Source: a virus (lineage: Duplodnaviria; Heunggongvirae; Uroviricota; Caudoviricetes). From it: DNA of 29,553 bases. Position numbers and translations under genes: made by a program. The notes beneath the pieces were generated by a model, which was not told where the DNA came from, made no database searches, and worked only from the letters and a program-made list of their open reading frames with translations. Positions within the stretch are counted from its first letter, which is position 1, and each line of letters starts with the position of its first letter. This document shows positions 4,184 to 13,276 of this stretch, one piece after another. The DNA is taken from IMG/VR virus record IMGVR_UViG_2740892031_000002. One strand, 5' to 3'.

Positions 4184-4483
4184 TTAACCAGTCTTTTGAC
4201 CGGAGTGGGGCGACGTTGTTTCGTTTTGCCCAAAGTGTGCGAGAGCGGGCGCAATTTGCCCGGCTTCTGGAGCTACCTGATCAGTCATGAACCACAAAGT
4301 ATATTTAGTAAATCTAGGATGTTGTAAGACCTTCATTATGGCTTCAACTCCAGCGTTTTTTGACCGGCTCTCATAGCTCGAAAGTGAGCTGTAGGCTACA
4401 CCAGTTAATTCACTGAATTCTTTACGGTTTAACCTTTCAGATTCACGGATTAGCTTCAACTTCTCCGAAACGTCTATTGACAT
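4184..4483 (-). CDS. C: Immunity repressor C (P2 C family)
   Basis: Tracked ORF 4184..4555; ATG at 4483 has a GGAG Shine-Dalgarno 5 nt upstream and gives 99 aa (MSIDVSEKLKLIRESE...). The C-terminal part (FTKYTLWFMTDQVAPEAGQIAPALAHFGQNETTSPHSGQKTG) matches P2 C from memory. Confidence 0.85.
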   Translation of the reverse strand: MSIDVSEKLKLIRESERLNRKEFSELTGVAYSSLSSYESRSKNAGVEAIMKVLQHPRFTKYTLWFMTDQVAPEAGQIAPALAHFGQNETTSPHSGQKTG

Positions 4484-4604
4484 AATTACTCCGATTGCGT
4501 AATTTCTTGCTGATAGTGTGAAATGTTGTGCTTCTGGAGTTATCCTTTTAGGCAATAATTAGCCATTAGGAGCCATTAGAAGCACTAAGGGAGAATCGTA
4601 GCAG
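4484..4604. promoter_or_regulatory. C/cox intergenic switch region (face-to-face Pe/Pc promoters with direct-repeat operators)
   Basis: Divergent C and cox start codons flank a ~120-bp region with a tandem direct repeat agccattag(g/a) at 4561-4569 and 4571-4579, the operator arrangement expected for P2-type C repressors. Confidence 0.55.
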
Positions 4605-6372: not shown

Positions 6373-6644
6373 GTATTCGTATTGAAATTGGCGAACGTTA
6401 TGTCGTTACCAGTGACAGCTTTCAGTTTATTCTCCACGAGAAAAAGAGAGCGGAAAGCGGTAAAAACGCCGGTCAGGAATGGCTGGCGGTGGTTGGTTAT
6501 TACCCGAAATTAAGCCAGCTCGTTTCCGGCCTGATGCATCACGATATTCTGACCGGAAGCGCAAAGTCTTTTGCTGATTTAAACGCGCAGGTTGAGCAAC
6601 TCAGCAAGCGTTGCTCAGAGGCTTTTGGCTCATATGGCCGTTAA
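6369..6644 (+). CDS. Small early protein at the P2 orf83 position
   Basis: 91-aa ORF; stop overlaps the start of A. Confidence 0.6.
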   Translation: MSIRIEIGERYVVTSDSFQFILHEKKRAESGKNAGQEWLAVVGYYPKLSQLVSGLMHHDILTGSAKSFADLNAQVEQLSKRCSEAFGSYGR

Positions 6645-8934
6645 AGCCTCCGGGCGTTTTGTCCCTCCGTCAGCATTTGCTGCAGGCACCGGTAAGGCGT
6701 TTACCGGTGCTTATGCATGGAACGCGCCACGCGAGGCCGTCGGGCGCGAAAGACCCCTTACACGTGACGAGATGCGTCAGGTGCAAGGTGTTTTATCCAC
6801 GATTAACCGCCTGCCTTACTTTTTGCGCTCGCTGTTTACTTCACGCTATGACCACATCCGGCGCAATAAAAGCCCGGTGCACGGGTTTTATTTCCTCACA
6901 TCCACTTTTCAGCGTCGTTTATGGCCGCGCATTGAGCGTGTGAATCAGCGCCATGAAATGAACACCGACGCGTCGTTACTGTTTCTGGCAGAGCGTGACC
7001 ACTATGCGCGCCTGCCGGGAATGAATGACAAGGAGCTGAAAAAGTTTGCTGCCCGTATCTCATCGCAGCTTTTCATGATGTATGGGGAACTCAGTGATGC
7101 CTGGGTGGATGCGCATGGCGAAAAAGAATCGCTGTTTACGGATGAGGCGCAGGCTCACCTCTATGGTCATGTTGCTGGCGCTGCACGTGCTTTCAATATT
7201 TCCCCTCTCTACTGGAAAAAATACCGTAAAGGGCAGATGACCACGAGGCAGGCATATTCTGCCATTGCCCGTCTGTTTAACGATGAGTGGTGGACTCATC
7301 AGCTTAAAGGCCAGCGTATGCGCTGGCATGAAGCGTTACTGATAGCTGTCGGGGAGGTCAATAAAGACCGTTCTCCTTATGCCAGTAAACACGCCATTCG
7401 TGATGTGCGTGCGCGCCGCCAGGCAAATCTGGAATTTCTTAAATCGTGTGACCTTGAAAACAGGGAAACCGGCGAGCGCATCGACCTTATCAGTAAGGTG
7501 ATGGGCAGTATTTCTAATCCTGAAATTCGCCGGATGGAGCTGATGAACACCATTGCCGGTATTGAGCGTTACGCCGCCGCAGAGGGTGATGTGGGGATGT
7601 TTATCACGCTGACCGCGCCGTCAAAGTATCACCCGACACGTCAGGTCAGAAAAGGCGAAAGTAAAACCGTTCAGCTTAATCACGGCTGGAACGATGAGGC
7701 ATTTAATCCAAAGGATGCGCAGCGTTATCTCTGCCGCATCTGGAGCCTGATGCGCACGGCATTCAAGGATAATGATTTACAGGTCTACGGTTTGCGTGTC
7801 GTCGAGCCACACCACGACGGAACGCCGCACTGGCATATGATGCTTTTTTGTAATCCACGCCAGCGTAACCAGATTATCGAAATCATGCGTCGCTACGCGC
7901 TCAAAGAGGATGGAGACGAAAGAGGAGCTGCGCGAAACCGTTTTCAGGCAAAACACCTTAACCGGGGCGGTGCTGCGGGATATATCGCGAAATACATTTC
8001 AAAAAACATCGACGGCTATGCACTGGATGGTCAGCTCGATAACGATACCGGTAAGCCGCTTAAAGATACTGCCGCGGCTGTTACCGCATGGGCGTCAACG
8101 TGGCGCATTCCGCAATTTAAAACGGTTGGACTGCCGACAATGGGGGCTTACCGTGAACTACGCAAATTGCCTCGCGGCGTCAGTATTGCTGATGAGTTTG
8201 ACGAACGCGTCGAGGCTGCTCGCGCTGCCGCAGACAGTGGTGATTTTGCGTTGTATATCAGCGCGCAGGGTGGGGCAAATGTCCCGCGCGATTGTCAGAC
8301 TGTCAGGGTCGCCCGTAGCCCGTCGGATGACGTTAACGAGTACGAGGAAGAAGTCGAGAGAGTGGTCGGCATTTACGCGCCGCATCTCGGCGCGCGTCAT
8401 ATTCATATCACCAGAACGACGGACTGGCGCATTGTGCCGAAAGTTCCGGTCGTTGAGCCTTTGACTTTAAAAAGCGGCATCGCCGCGCCTCGGAGTCCTG
8501 TCAATAACTGTGGAAAGCTCACCGGTGGTGATACTTCGTTACCGGCTCCCACACCTTCTGAACACGCCGCAGCAGTGCTTAATCTGGTTGATGACGGTGT
8601 TATCGAATGGAGTGACCCGGAGGTTGTGAGGGCGCTCAGAGGTGCATTAAAATGCGGACTGAGAACACCAAATCGTCAGCAAAGAAACGGAAGTCCGTTA
8701 AAACCGCATGAAATAGCGCCATCAGCCAGGCTGACCAGGTCGGAGCGATTGCAAATTACCCGTATTCGCGTTGATCTTGCTCAGAACGGTATCAGACCTC
8801 AGCGATGGGAGCTTGAGTCGCTGGCGCGTGGGGCAACCGTAAATTATGACGGGAAAAAATTCACGTATCCGGTCGCTGATGAGTGGCCGGGATATTCAAC
8901 TATAACAGAGTGGAATCAATTTGATGACGGGTAA
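6634..8934 (+). CDS. A: Replication initiation endonuclease A (rolling-circle initiator)
   Basis: Tracked ORF 6592..8934; P2 gpA begins MAVKASGRFVPPSAFAAGTGK, which corresponds to ATG at 6634 (766 aa). Long-range identity to P2 A by eye. Confidence 0.93.
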   Translation: MAVKASGRFVPPSAFAAGTGKAFTGAYAWNAPREAVGRERPLTRDEMRQVQGVLSTINRLPYFLRSLFTSRYDHIRRNKSPVHGFYFLTSTFQRRLWPRIERVNQRHEMNTDASLLFLAERDHYARLPGMNDKELKKFAARISSQLFMMYGELSDAWVDAHGEKESLFTDEAQAHLYGHVAGAARAFNISPLYWKKYRKGQMTTRQAYSAIARLFNDEWWTHQLKGQRMRWHEALLIAVGEVNKDRSPYASKHAIRDVRARRQANLEFLKSCDLENRETGERIDLISKVMGSISNPEIRRMELMNTIAGIERYAAAEGDVGMFITLTAPSKYHPTRQVRKGESKTVQLNHGWNDEAFNPKDAQRYLCRIWSLMRTAFKDNDLQVYGLRVVEPHHDGTPHWHMMLFCNPRQRNQIIEIMRRYALKEDGDERGAARNRFQAKHLNRGGAAGYIAKYISKNIDGYALDGQLDNDTGKPLKDTAAAVTAWASTWRIPQFKTVGLPTMGAYRELRKLPRGVSIADEFDERVEAARAAADSGDFALYISAQGGANVPRDCQTVRVARSPSDDVNEYEEEVERVVGIYAPHLGARHIHITRTTDWRIVPKVPVVEPLTLKSGIAAPRSPVNNCGKLTGGDTSLPAPTPSEHAAAVLNLVDDGVIEWSDPEVVRALRGALKCGLRTPNRQQRNGSPLKPHEIAPSARLTRSERLQITRIRVDLAQNGIRPQRWELESLARGATVNYDGKKFTYPVADEWPGYSTITEWNQFDDG

Positions 8935-9065
8935 TCGAATGGAATGATCCGGCGGTCGTGAGGGCGCTCAGAGGTGCATTAAAACACGGTCTGAGAATAC
9001 CAAATCGTCAGCAAAGAAACGGAAGTCCGTTAAAACCGCTTGCATTTGTGCCATCGCGAGGCTGA
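8921..9065. repeat. Degenerate direct repeat of the 3' end of gene A (partner copy at about 8588-8734)
   Basis: ~145 bp starting ttgatgacgg...atcgaatgga...gtgagggcgctcagaggtgcattaaaa... recurs just after the A stop codon, similar but clearly diverged by eye; the second copy is out of frame and non-coding. Confidence 0.85.
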
Positions 9066-9351
9066 TCAAATCAGGTTTGTGATAAATTACTAGTATTTAT
9101 ATAGACCTCGCTCAGTATGGCATCACACAGAAGTAATGTAAGCGTGGGGGGCGTGGTGTACCATTGATATACGACGGTCGAAAATTTACATAGCCGATTT
9201 CCTGTGATTGGTTTTCGTTATGCACTCTTTTCTGAAGAGATTAACTACTGATAGACTCAGGTTGGATGTCAGAATCGCTATAGATTTCTTGCTATATATG
9301 TATTTTTCAATGAAAATGATCTCTGATTTAAACTGTAGTAAGGTGATTGGT

Positions 9352-9840
9352 ATGGATGGTTTATGGGAAAAAATATCGTCATATAATATATTTAATAATC
9401 TTTTTCCAGGTGCTCTTTTTATTTATCTTCTTGAGAGAATGACGAATATCGTTTTATCTGGCGATGATTTAATAAAAAATGTTGTCCTCTATTATTTTGT
9501 TGGCTTAGTCATTGGCCGGATTGGTTCTATCGTATTGGAACCTTTTTTAAAACTATCGCGTTTGATTAAGTTTGCTCCTTATAAAGATTATGTGTCAGCA
9601 TGTGGTGTGGATGGAAAAATTGAAACTTTGCAAGAGATTGCGAATATGTATAGGACGATATTTTCAATGTCAATTATTCTTTTGGCGACATTGTGCGTTG
9701 TAGGACGGTTTACTGGCGAGACATATGGCTTATCTAAAATAACGTTGGCGGTTTTTGCTATTTTGTTTGTTGTCTCATATATTAAACAAATAAGATACAT
9801 AATATATAGAGTAAATGCTGTTAATAATAAGCTGCCGTAA
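9352..9840 (+). CDS. Hypothetical small multi-pass membrane protein (about 4 predicted TM helices); hotspot cargo
   Basis: Tracked ORF 9208..9840; ATG at 9352 has an AAGGTGA Shine-Dalgarno 5 nt upstream (163 aa). Four hydrophobic stretches (LFPGALFIYLL; VVLYYFVGLVIGRIGSIVL; IFSMSIILLATLCVV; ITLAVFAILFVVSYI). AT-rich; no homolog recognised. Confidence 0.65.
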   Translation: MDGLWEKISSYNIFNNLFPGALFIYLLERMTNIVLSGDDLIKNVVLYYFVGLVIGRIGSIVLEPFLKLSRLIKFAPYKDYVSACGVDGKIETLQEIANMYRTIFSMSIILLATLCVVGRFTGETYGLSKITLAVFAILFVVSYIKQIRYIIYRVNAVNNKLP

Positions 9841-9850
9841 GGCAGCTTTT
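9829..9850. terminator. Bidirectional intrinsic terminator between convergent cargo genes
   Basis: Perfect 8-bp stem aagctgcc / ggcagctt with a gtaa loop that contains the stop codon of the membrane-protein gene, followed by a T-run. Confidence 0.7.
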
Positions 9851-9853
9851 GAA

Positions 9854-10945
9854 TTATTCTTCGGTTCTATAGTTACTAATGTATGATCGTGGAGTGGCTG
9901 TTTTCCATCCTGCCCTTTCAGGAGCATTATAAAAATGGTACTTACCAAGCCCCTCGGTGGCGATAACTTTCGCTCCTCGTCGAGTAAAGGCATTAATTAC
10001 AGCTTGATGGGGATGTTTATCTGAACCTGGGGCACATGATACAAATGCGGTTATCTCCCTTTTTTCGCCTTCATTTACAATGTTACCAACAAGTTTATCG
10101 AGAACATCAGGGCCTACATTTCTCCGGCTACCATGATGAGGTACTTGAATGAATCTTAATGATTCTTTATTAATGTATTGGGAGGCTTGATCTAAGGCTG
10201 TTATACCAGCATCGCCAGTGAACACTAACGTTCTTCCATCAATCTCAAGTTTCAAAATGACACTTGAGTTATTTTGTGCCGAGGTGGTATCTTCATTATC
10301 AATACCTTCATCAGTAAACCATTCAGCAACGTAATCAATAAATTTCTTCGTTTTTTCAACTACAGACTCAAAGACTGCTTTTAGTACTTCAAATCCAGCT
10401 GTATCCTCAGCTTTTTTGGGCATTCTTGCGAAATCAGGTATTAGAGTCTCATAGTAAGATTGGGTTGGCCCGATAACAACCAGAGTAGCATTATCCCAGG
10501 TCATTCCTTGAAAAGGCTCTTTTATTTCAATTCCTTTTTTTTCCGCTAATTTGACAGCGTCATAAGCTTTTTGTAAGTTTTCTTTCATTCGATTTGCAAT
10601 ACTGGCATCAGTTATCCTGCCATCTGCAAACTCACTTGCGAGACCTTGATTATGTTCCCAAGGCTTATGAATCCAAAACTCTTTTACTTCTGCATTTTCT
10701 AGAACAGATGTAAGTCCACCGACGTGGTCACCATCGGGGTGTGTGGAGATAAGCAAGTCAATAGTTTTTGTGCGGTAGTATTTTTCAATATGCTCAATGA
10801 CTTGTTCTCCGGTGCTGGCATATCCTGCATCAATAACGACAACTTTTTGTTCATCTCTTGAACCATGTAGGTTTCCCCATCTGATGCAGATCGCATCGCC
10901 GCTTTTTTTTTCGCCAACAGCTAGAAAATCAATTTCGTAACCCAT
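9854..10945 (-). CDS. Metallo-beta-lactamase-fold hydrolase, ComEC/Rec2-like subtype (putative metal-dependent nuclease); hotspot cargo
   Basis: 363-aa ORF. ComEC-type MBL signatures in order: IDFLAVGEKKSGDAICIRW, KVVVIDAGY, LISTHPDGDHVGG (variant of the HxHxDH motif), LVFTGDAG, QVPHHGS. AT-rich. Confidence 0.8.
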   Translation of the reverse strand: MGYEIDFLAVGEKKSGDAICIRWGNLHGSRDEQKVVVIDAGYASTGEQVIEHIEKYYRTKTIDLLISTHPDGDHVGGLTSVLENAEVKEFWIHKPWEHNQGLASEFADGRITDASIANRMKENLQKAYDAVKLAEKKGIEIKEPFQGMTWDNATLVVIGPTQSYYETLIPDFARMPKKAEDTAGFEVLKAVFESVVEKTKKFIDYVAEWFTDEGIDNEDTTSAQNNSSVILKLEIDGRTLVFTGDAGITALDQASQYINKESLRFIQVPHHGSRRNVGPDVLDKLVGNIVNEGEKREITAFVSCAPGSDKHPHQAVINAFTRRGAKVIATEGLGKYHFYNAPERAGWKTATPRSYISNYRTEE

Positions 10946-11107
10946 TCCATATCCTTATTAAACTGTGAATTAACATGAATCCAAGATGTTAAATCATATG
11001 GATAATAACGCAACTTTTCCGCAGTAAACACTGTGAGCGGATTTAATCTCGTCAGAACTAAAAGCAAGTAGTGTGACGAGGGACAATGAGTCTCTTTGGG
11101 GCGTTGG

Positions 11108-11545
11108 CTATGACACTGACGCAACCAGATTAACGCCGTGAGTCAGCAGATTTGTAATCACACCGGCAATGACCCCAGGAGTCCCATCTTTCACCGCACT
11201 GATCACTTTATCCCCCATCGTTTCATTTCCACCAAGCACCTCGGGTTTTTTGTTAAGAACTGTGAGCGCTTTTTCAGTAAGTCGAACATCGTAAAAATAC
11301 GACTGATGGTCTGTGTTGTACTGAATGTACCCGTTTTCACAGAGAAAATTGAATGTACCTTCAACCACACTACGCAACTGATTTAACGCTTTCATTTCTG
11401 GTGAGTTAAGTTGGTCAAAGTAGTCATCAGGTAGCGCGGCGTTAAATTTGTCGTAGTTAATCACCTGTGGTACGGGAAAATTTTCCCATAGTACTGCAAA
11501 GATTTCCGCCGTTTGTTGGTTAAATAAATCGAGATTTTTCGACAT
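11108..11545 (-). CDS. Hypothetical protein (~145 aa), upstream of and co-directional with the MBL hydrolase
   Basis: Tracked ORF 11108..11647 (179 aa). In-frame ATGs at 11557 and 11545 give 149 or 145 aa; none of the three starts has a convincing Shine-Dalgarno, so the start is uncertain. Hydrophobic, glycine-rich C-terminus (GTPGVIAGVITNLLTHGVNLVASVS). No homolog recognised. Confidence 0.6.
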   Translation of the reverse strand: MSKNLDLFNQQTAEIFAVLWENFPVPQVINYDKFNAALPDDYFDQLNSPEMKALNQLRSVVEGTFNFLCENGYIQYNTDHQSYFYDVRLTEKALTVLNKKPEVLGGNETMGDKVISAVKDGTPGVIAGVITNLLTHGVNLVASVS

Positions 11546-11873
11546 GCAAAATTCCATTTCTTTTGATAATGAGTGGGTTAAACGCTGGACGAGGCAGATT
11601 ACCACTCTGGCACAAAACAATGATCTTAGTTCACGCGAAGTTGACATATATACCGATAAGCTGGTTGCGCAGGCAACTAGCGTAGAACTCGCTCAGGTCA
11701 TCAAGATGCTATTGAATTATATTCGAATGAACAAATAAAATGATCTGTATCAATCTGTTAGGTGTCGTTTGTAAAAATGTGTGGACACGATTGTTCTGCT
11801 AATTGTTGTCAACATGTGCGTCAACAGTGAGATTGGTGCATTGCGCGGCCAGTGACAACTTTAAAAATTGGCC

Positions 11874-11903
11874 AAAACCGGCACTATGAATGCCGGTTTT
11901 TTT
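11874..11903 (+). terminator. Rho-independent terminator (right boundary of the cargo hotspot, before cos)
   Basis: Stem aaaccggca / tgccggttt with 7-nt loop, followed by tttttttgtgttttttt. Confidence 0.75.
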
Positions 11904-12061
11904 GTGTTTTTTTCTGCGATACTCCTATTTTTAGCAGTGCATGCAATATGTGCGTGGTTTTGCATGTGCCTAAGTTGCATGTTCTGGCTGTGCACCGTCA
12001 GGACGGACGCCCCTCAAAAGTGGTAATGCACCTGCATTAAAACCGACCTATGAAGCGGGCG

Positions 12062-12080
12062 GGCGAGGCGGGGAAAGCAC
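12062..12080. other. cos site (19-nt cohesive-end sequence of P2)
   Basis: ggcgaggcggggaaagcac is identical to the P2 cohesive-end sequence as I recall it; lies between the cargo hotspot and Q as in P2. Confidence 0.7.
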
Positions 12081-12212
12081 TGCGCGCTGGCGGTGGTGCT
12101 GATTTTATTTTTTCAGCGTCTCAGCGCGTCGTGATGGCATTTAGTCGGCCTGCTCGGGCGTTGGTGTGTCTGCGGGGTGTTTTGTGCGGTGGTGAGGGCG
12201 TGATGACGGGAT

Positions 12213-12236
12213 GTAAAAAAGCCGCCCGCAGGCGGC
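12213..12236 (-). terminator. Rho-independent terminator downstream of Q
   Basis: On the minus strand: GC stem gccgcc / ggcggc with a 4-nt loop followed by a run of six T, immediately after the Q stop codon. Confidence 0.75.
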
Positions 12237-12241
12237 GATGT

Positions 12242-13276
12242 TCAGCCGTTGTCAGTGTCAAGTGAGTAGTTTTTAAAGCGGATGACCTCCTGACCGAGCC
12301 AGTCGTTTATCTCGCGGATCCTGTCCTGTAACGGGATAAGCTCATTGCGGACAAAGACCTTTGCCACTTTCTCAATATCACCCAGCGACCCGACGTTCTC
12401 CGGCTTGCCACCCATCAACTGAAAGGGGATGCGGTGCGCGTCCAGCAGGTCAGCGGCGCTGGCTTTTTTGATATTAAAAAAATCGTCCTTCGTCGCCACT
12501 TCACTGAGGGGGATAATTTTAATGCCGTCGGCTTTCCCCTGTGGGGCATAGAGAAACAGATTTTTAAAGTTATTGCGGCCTTTCGACTTCACCATGTTTT
12601 CGCGAAGCATTTCGATATCGTTGCGATCCTGCACGGCATCGGTGACGTACATGATGTATCCGGCATGTGCGCCATTTTCGTAATACTTGCGGCGGAACAG
12701 CGTGGCCGACTCATTCAGCCAGGCAGAGTTAAGGGCGCTGAGATATTCCGGCAGGCCGTACAGCTCCTGATTAATATCCGGCTCCAGCAGGTGAAACAAG
12801 GAGCCGGACGCGAAGGCTGTCGGCTCGTTGAAGGACGGCACCCACCAGTAAACATCCTCCTCCACGCCACGGCGGGTATATTTTGCCGGTGAGGTTTCCA
12901 GTCTGATGACCTTACCGGTGGTGCTGTAACGCTTTTCCAGAAACGCATTACCGAACACCAGAAAATCCAGCACAAAGCGGCTGAAATCCTGCTGGGACAG
13001 CCACGGATGCGGGATAAATGTCGAGGCCAGAATATTACGTTTGACGTAAATCGGTGAGCTGTGATGCACGGCAGCACGCAGGCTTTTTGCCAGACCAGTA
13101 AAGCTGACCGGTGGTTCATACCATCTGCCGTTACTGATGCACTCGACGTAATCCAGAATGTCACGGCGGTCGAGTACCGGCACCGGCTCACCAAAGGTGA
13201 ATGCTTCCATTTTCGGGGCGCTGGCGGTCATTTTTTTTGCCGCAGGTTGCTGTGTTTTCCCTTTTTTCTTGCTCAT
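12242..13276 (-). CDS. Q: Portal protein
   Basis: 344-aa ORF, same length and position as P2 gpQ; start overlaps the P stop. Confidence 0.9.
   Translation of the reverse strand: MSKKKGKTQQPAAKKMTASAPKMEAFTFGEPVPVLDRRDILDYVECISNGRWYEPPVSFTGLAKSLRAAVHHSSPIYVKRNILASTFIPHPWLSQQDFSRFVLDFLVFGNAFLEKRYSTTGKVIRLETSPAKYTRRGVEEDVYWWVPSFNEPTAFASGSLFHLLEPDINQELYGLPEYLSALNSAWLNESATLFRRKYYENGAHAGYIMYVTDAVQDRNDIEMLRENMVKSKGRNNFKNLFLYAPQGKADGIKIIPLSEVATKDDFFNIKKASAADLLDAHRIPFQLMGGKPENVGSLGDIEKVAKVFVRNELIPLQDRIREINDWLGQEVIRFKNYSLDTDNG

Follow-up and report, generated by a model that had tools for sequence, protein, structure and literature searches.

In an E. coli P2-like prophage, the 3′ end of replication gene A runs into a stretch (8914–9250) that is probably a non-functional relic duplicated from the final 333 nt of A, the scar of a single unequal or illegitimate recombination. 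The downstream copy is a core-gene pseudogene, frameshifted and without an intact reading frame. The duplicate is lineage-restricted and linked to one cargo, and is not a constant feature of P2-like phages.

Gene content between A and cos

All positions refer to the window, i.e. the whole stretch of 29,553 nucleotides that was analyzed (IMG/VR record IMGVR_UViG_2740892031_000002), which is identical to E. coli 4/1-1 over 8300–9500. Gene A (6634–8934, plus strand; RefSeq CDS mapped from locus L005 and ORF list) encodes an endonuclease of 766 amino acids with a Phage_GPA domain at residues 133–462 (Pfam PF05840, E = 2.5e-122). It contains the replication-origin core (8467–8511, plus strand), mapped from the P2 record, including the A nick site at about 8492 (GCGCCTC/GGAGTCCTGTCAA; annotated at 29892 in the P2 record). 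Three cargo genes lie between A and cos, two of which match the PADLOC candidate defense system PDC-M48. PDC-M48A (9352–9840, plus strand; PADLOC PDLC04670, E = 8.4e-51; RefSeq CDS) is a candidate defense protein of 162 amino acids without a Pfam match. PDC-M48B (9854–10945, minus strand; PADLOC PDLC04676, E = 1.1e-100; Pfam Lactamase_B) is a 363-amino-acid protein with a metallo-beta-lactamase fold, and the third gene (11108–11545, minus strand; RefSeq CDS) encodes 145 amino acids with no family match in Pfam or PADLOC. The cos cohesive-end sequence (GGCGAGGCGGGGAAAGCAC; 12062–12080, plus strand) is identical to the P2 cosR 19-mer. Between cargo and cos, a strong hairpin with a run of T behind it (11878–11908; AAAACCGGCACTATGAATGCCGGTTTTTTTTG) is a likely terminator. 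PDC-M48 homologues at 69–79% identity also follow A in distant P2-like phages.

Gene A ends within a copy of its own 3′ part

A repeat search identified a direct repeat of 125 nt (8599–8723 and 8931–9055; 89% identical, spacing 332), extended by the flanking pieces 8581–8597/8914–8930 and 8725–8737/9056–9068. Overall, copy 1, the functional A coding segment that recurs, occupies 8581–8737 inside A, and copy 2 occupies 8914–9068, both on the plus strand. MAFFT column identity across the aligned repeat region is 88%. Because BLASTN of 8588–8797 against 8921–9128 gives E = 1.8e-49, the repeat is not a chance similarity. An earlier note, made from the letters of the sequence, had already seen 8588–8734 recurring at 8921–9065 with many substitutions; the duplication is real, but it is larger than the roughly 145 bp proposed there. 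Weak homology continues beyond the repeat to about 9250 in nucleotide alignments, and tblastn recovers A residues 223–291 from the tail of copy 2 at 38% identity, with stops (copy 2 overall matches residues 190–291). The duplicated segment is therefore an in-frame unit of 333 nt, the final 111 codons of A, arranged head to tail, with 8581–8913 being directly followed by 8914 to about 9250 in the same orientation and with colinear homology. Alignments place the functional A tail that completes the unit, here called t1, at 8738–8913 (plus strand); its last ~20 nt are specific to the carrier family of the window. In copy 2, a well-preserved part (8914–9039, plus strand; repeat search, MAFFT and allele comparison) is followed by a decayed tail, t2 (9040–9250, plus strand; tblastn, alignments and counts of private changes).

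The position of the repeat relative to the A stop codon (TAA, 8932–8934) also needs correction. Copy 1 is not the end of A, as the earlier note had assumed, but sits 200–350 nt ahead of the stop, and copy 2 does not start immediately after the stop but at 8914, 18 nt ahead of it. Since copy 2 begins before the stop, the final five codons of A (QFDDG) and the TAA itself are copy-2 sequence. Copy 2 lacks the equivalent of T8598 of copy 1 (between 8930 and 8931), and this 1-nt deletion shifts the frame and lets the TAA end A five codons into copy 2. With a second 1-nt deletion at about 9055, the second copy is indeed out of frame, as had been noted. The A-homologous frame of its continuation contains at least four stops and further indels and has no start codon, and RefSeq annotates no CDS at 8935–9351. 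The candidate joint pairs CAGAGTGG|AATC with CAGCAGTGCTT|AATC, a short and imperfect match of which both sides have mutated since.

The duplicate is confined to few loci

The distribution of the duplicate was surveyed in 124 usable A-3′ loci, drawn from 53 species representatives, 80 IMG/VR contigs and reference records. A downstream A-3′ duplicate is present in the window's own family (8 loci) and in one unrelated locus, and absent from the other 115. P2 has one copy of the segment only, and no example of the tandem turned up among 88 matching phage records. A tandem shared by P2 and all its relatives, which according to the earlier note would point to a functional element instead of a scar, is thus not what is found. 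Among 5426 complete E. coli genomes, 1059 have a P2-like A end and 23 carry the duplicate; in all 23 the match extends 69 nt into PDC-M48A. PDC-M48 cargo is present in every carrier examined, i.e. three annotated genomes and five IMG/VR carriers. An extra 112 bp in some of the E. coli matches proved to be an artefact of joining BLAST pieces.

The unrelated locus is a Buttiauxella MAG (L024, 4891–5650), in which a 132-nt A-tail remnant, 77% identical, lies about 620 nt past an intact A stop and is separated from it by two small ORFs. This remnant is an independent analogue of the scar in the window, indicating that such scars recur but are rare.

Two levels of divergence in copy 2

In the core of copy 2 (8931–9039), 4 of 109 positions are private to this copy (3.7%), against 55 of 211 columns in the tail from 9040 onwards (Fisher p = 1.2e-7). 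The flanks of the core carry 22–26% private changes, the first 17 nt of copy 2 being heavily altered as well. Private changes in the tail are AT-biased (25 GC>AT vs. 12 AT>GC), and GC content is 0.52 in t1 vs. 0.41 in t2.

The remaining differences between the copies in the core are ordinary allele polymorphisms, so that the core does not leave the range of the A allele pool: copy 2 has the majority allele at 8944, 8957, 8985 and 8986, where the resident copy 1 has minority alleles. Conversely, a rare T (8694/9026), seen in 4 of 66 alleles, is common to copies 1 and 2, and the ends of t1 and t2 have derived states in common. The core haplotype of copy 2 is a mosaic, with majority-type alleles in its left half and the resident type, including the T at 9026, in its right half. 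In one carrier (L004), a highly divergent copy-1 allele accompanies an unaltered copy 2.

Given that so little-changed a core sits within an otherwise old and decayed relic, we infer that its sequence was most likely rewritten by gene conversion, with an A allele as template, before the carriers of today separated. Ongoing conversion of copy 2 by copy 1 was considered and rejected, because the single private copy-2 change of L004 does not match its own copy 1.

The duplication lies inside the exchanged module

Along A and upstream of it, seven carrier haplotypes are 2–3% apart, with the last left-side differences at 8331–8455. From about 8460 to 12080 they are near-identical, and they differ again 10–55 nt beyond cos. 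The shared block thus covers copy 1, the A stop, copy 2, the cargo and cos; L004 is the exception, with a left edge between 8749 and 8969. A near-identical block on differing backbones implies that the mobile unit extends from the origin island to cos, with the duplication inside. The earlier note had taken the duplication as the left boundary of the hotspot. Present edges, however, lie upstream of it, at the origin island, and both copies are within the block. By contrast, its proposal that the 3′ part of A serves as one flank for homologous recombination and cos as the other edge agrees well with the block edges in the carriers.

Breakpoint mapping across cargo types, as suggested in that note, supported the right edge but gave a divided picture on the left. 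Pairs of loci (L059–L138; window 12062–12135) with cargo at least 99.5% identical but different backbones were compared around cos. Identical-cargo blocks end at most 70 nt past cos in 56 of 59 non-clonal pairs, which cover six cargo types; with divergence setting in 1–70 nt past cos, cos is the right edge of the exchanged module. On the left, the edges of near-identical cargo blocks fall around the nick site (8295–8525) in 11 of 20 distinct cases, from non-independent pairs, and none lies further left in A. For other cargo types, some left edges fall in the origin zone and others within the final 350 nt of A. Overall, tight linkage to cargo is limited to the final ~100 nt of A, the only part in which same-cargo pairs are 10-fold less diverged than different-cargo pairs. 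The idea that every cargo type has its left boundary at the origin was therefore not upheld. The clustering of left edges at the nick site could reflect nick-stimulated recombination or simply the longest perfect identity; a special role of the origin in exchange is no more than suggestive, and the longest perfect-identity stretch there would suffice.

In 11W (L001, 3040–3114; window 8840–8934), the A tail is replaced relative to P2, the last ~75–100 nt being cargo-linked.

Function or foreign descent of the repeat

If the repeat were a functional cis element of replication, either an origin-associated repeat or an A-binding site, its location would be apt, as copy 1 is only ~90 nt downstream of the nick site, and the far better preservation of the copy-2 core than of its flanks would follow. 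We nevertheless give this reading hardly any credence, and it is largely refuted by the distribution of the repeat, which P2 and the large majority of surveyed loci lack. Moreover, the repeat has just two copies, spaced 333 nt apart, and the allele-diversity profile speaks against conservation of copy 1 as a cis element: whereas the true origin core (8467–8511), which served as a control, has a diversity of ~0 among 82 distinct E. coli-type alleles and is conserved at the nucleotide level from E. coli to Providencia, the copy-1 region (8587–8736) is more variable than the gene (0.05–0.12 vs. a mean of 0.052). Natural A genes can also do without it. In Citrobacter youngae, Enterobacter bugandensis and Lelliottia nimipressuralis (L041, L042 and L043; site at ~4480–4600 of each locus), A proteins are 82–83% identical to that of the window, but homology is lost right after the origin core (...CAATAACTGTGG) and gives way to 34–41 unrelated residues and a stop, the A tail differing in each locus. 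The region containing copy 1 is therefore not universally required, and, on sequence comparison, the C-terminal ~100 amino acids of A appear to be replaceable. A new role for the copy-2 core, retained by selection, is likewise very unlikely. Under this reading, the 109-nt core would act as a decoy or antisense sequence against gene A of superinfecting P2-like phages, or as a regulatory leader of the cargo; that it is kept as a homology landing pad seems just as improbable. In its favor are the low-divergence island described above, a perfect 41-nt match to copy 1 (8667–8707 = 8999–9039) and the presence of a weak minus-strand hairpin in both copies. On the other hand, the core has no start codon, promoter-like site or RNA family match, all carriers are nearly identical in copy 2 and thus too alike to gauge constraint, and gene conversion would give the same pattern without any function. 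Were selection involved after all, a piece of a replication gene would have been co-opted by the prophage or its defense cargo, and as a landing pad the core would promote the capture of new A-linked cassettes.

A stronger competitor, although we still consider it the less probable account, holds that copy 2 is the A 3′ end of another P2-like lineage, which arrived together with the PDC-M48 cargo and whose left end marks the boundary of that exchange. PDC-M48 homologues directly follow A in 11W, L148 and L144–L147, and in 11W the similarity amounts to 71% nucleotide identity (window 8921–10947 aligned to L001 2789–4820). As homologues of the cargo adjoin A elsewhere, copy 2 and t2 hold the place of A's own end, and the sequences would fit copy 2 having been attached to the cargo. 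The majority alleles of copy 2 at the four positions listed above, where copy 1 has minority alleles, and the general cargo linkage of the last ~100 nt of A also fit such a descent. The earlier note had favored this reading on account of the divergence between the copies. However, recombination swaps copy-1 alleles while copy 2 stays fixed, as seen in L004, so that this divergence is uninformative on foreign origin. A donor lineage for copy 2 was sought among the A-3′ ends of 108 loci and none was identified; global alignment of core plus tail to 49–98% related A genes gave none nearer than the E. coli P2 allele pool. No sampled allele or lineage is nearer to copy 2 than ~89%. Those nearest to the core (L105, L122 and L127) show three shared-polymorphism differences each, compared with five for the resident copy 1. 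For t2, E. coli P2-type A tails are nearest (~68% identical) and not those of other genera (59–66%), nor are the tails of the other PDC-M48 carriers 11W or L148 any nearer. The rare T common to the copies and the end states shared by t1 and t2 also count against this account, as does the position of today's exchange boundaries, which are found further upstream, at the origin island; moreover, homologous recombination alone leaves no duplication.

Several further candidates were examined and dismissed. An Rfam search of 8300–12300 returned nothing relevant and a promoter scan found none in 8935–9351; with no convincing terminator either, an RNA or regulatory element in copy 2 was rejected. The weak terminator-like hairpin found in both copies (8686–8699 and 9018–9031, minus strand; AACGGACTTCCGTT then TCTTTGCTGA) has a stem of only 5 bp and is probably not significant. 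Similarly, no dif-like site (two 11-nt arms separated by 6–8 nt) was found in 8400–12300 on either strand at up to six total mismatches and three per arm, and a Xer/dif/cer-like recombination site at the cassette boundary was rejected. As far as such sequence criteria reach, the analysis shows a relic without detectable present-day activity.

Proposed origin and spread of the relic

Our preferred reading, a recombination scar, would start with one unequal or illegitimate joint between a complete A end (...CAGAGTGG) and a site inside A that lies 111 codons ahead of it (...CAGCAGTGCTT|AATC). The partners may have been sister genomes or co-infecting P2-like genomes, the event being either a tandem duplication in situ or a joint between genomes, formed head to tail at imperfect microhomology. 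The 1-nt deletion after 8930 then ended A five codons into the copy, and the remainder decayed. Later, the core would have been patched by gene conversion from an A allele, while the tail and the first 17 nt stayed diverged.

Today the relic rides in a module composed of the origin, the A 3′ end, the relic itself, the PDC-M48 cargo and cos. This module is presumably passed from one P2-like backbone to another through one homologous crossover in A, for the most part at the perfectly conserved origin island. Because the cargo lies at the right terminus of the cos-packaged chromosome, the other end of the module is set by cos and one crossover in A is enough. The footprint of homologous recombination seen in the earlier note is therefore retained in part: the scar and the A and cos flanks are there, but clean exchange between flanks does not make a duplication. 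As homologous recombination in the flanks replaces sequence cleanly, a head-to-tail duplicate requires an unequal or illegitimate joint.

The relic itself is molecular debris and matters little; its value is that of a marker. Being unique, the scar tags one module, whose edges thereby become readable on different backbones. This provides sequence-level support for the exchange of defense cassettes by one homologous crossover in A, often in the origin island, together with the cos terminus. Together with its analogue in Buttiauxella, it also points to occasional illegitimate joints in the dispensable-looking C-terminal region of A that accompany cargo turnover.

Comparison with known systems

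The locus is the P2 gpA-gpQ (tin/old, 'TO') hotspot next to cos defined by Rousset et al. 2022 (PMC9122126), and the window shows the same kind of cargo turnover. P2 itself differs from the window: its A gene is followed at once by orf91, tin and old, and the duplicate is lacking. Exchange through cos ends and homologous recombination in the flanks was put forward as speculation in that study, whereas the comparisons made here show block edges at A or the origin and at cos.

In comparison with more general models, the relic resembles tandems formed by unequal crossing-over or slippage in its head-to-tail order, the loss of frame and the AT-biased decay, and perhaps in the short imperfect homology at its joint, but differs in that neither intermediates of the process nor conversion in progress came to light. 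Its high-similarity island between paralogues resembles patchy gene conversion. Unlike iterons or other initiator-binding repeats, the repeat is not conserved among relatives with the same initiator.

The closest parallel is offered by the P2/P4 defense loci, in which, according to the portions of a recent report considered here (NAR 2026, PMC13586616), small pseudogenes occur frequently between genes, in some cases with homology to core genes, and are likely remnants of intense recombination. Like those remnants, as far as they are described in these portions, the relic in the window is a non-coding gpA fragment in the gpA-cos hotspot beside intact defense genes. While statistics are given there, the relic is resolved here as an in-frame, head-to-tail duplication of 333 nt that supplies the stop codon of the gene, and its two-level divergence is a structure not described in the portions considered. 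It is one recombination remnant of a recognized sort, an ordinary scar and not a new kind of element.
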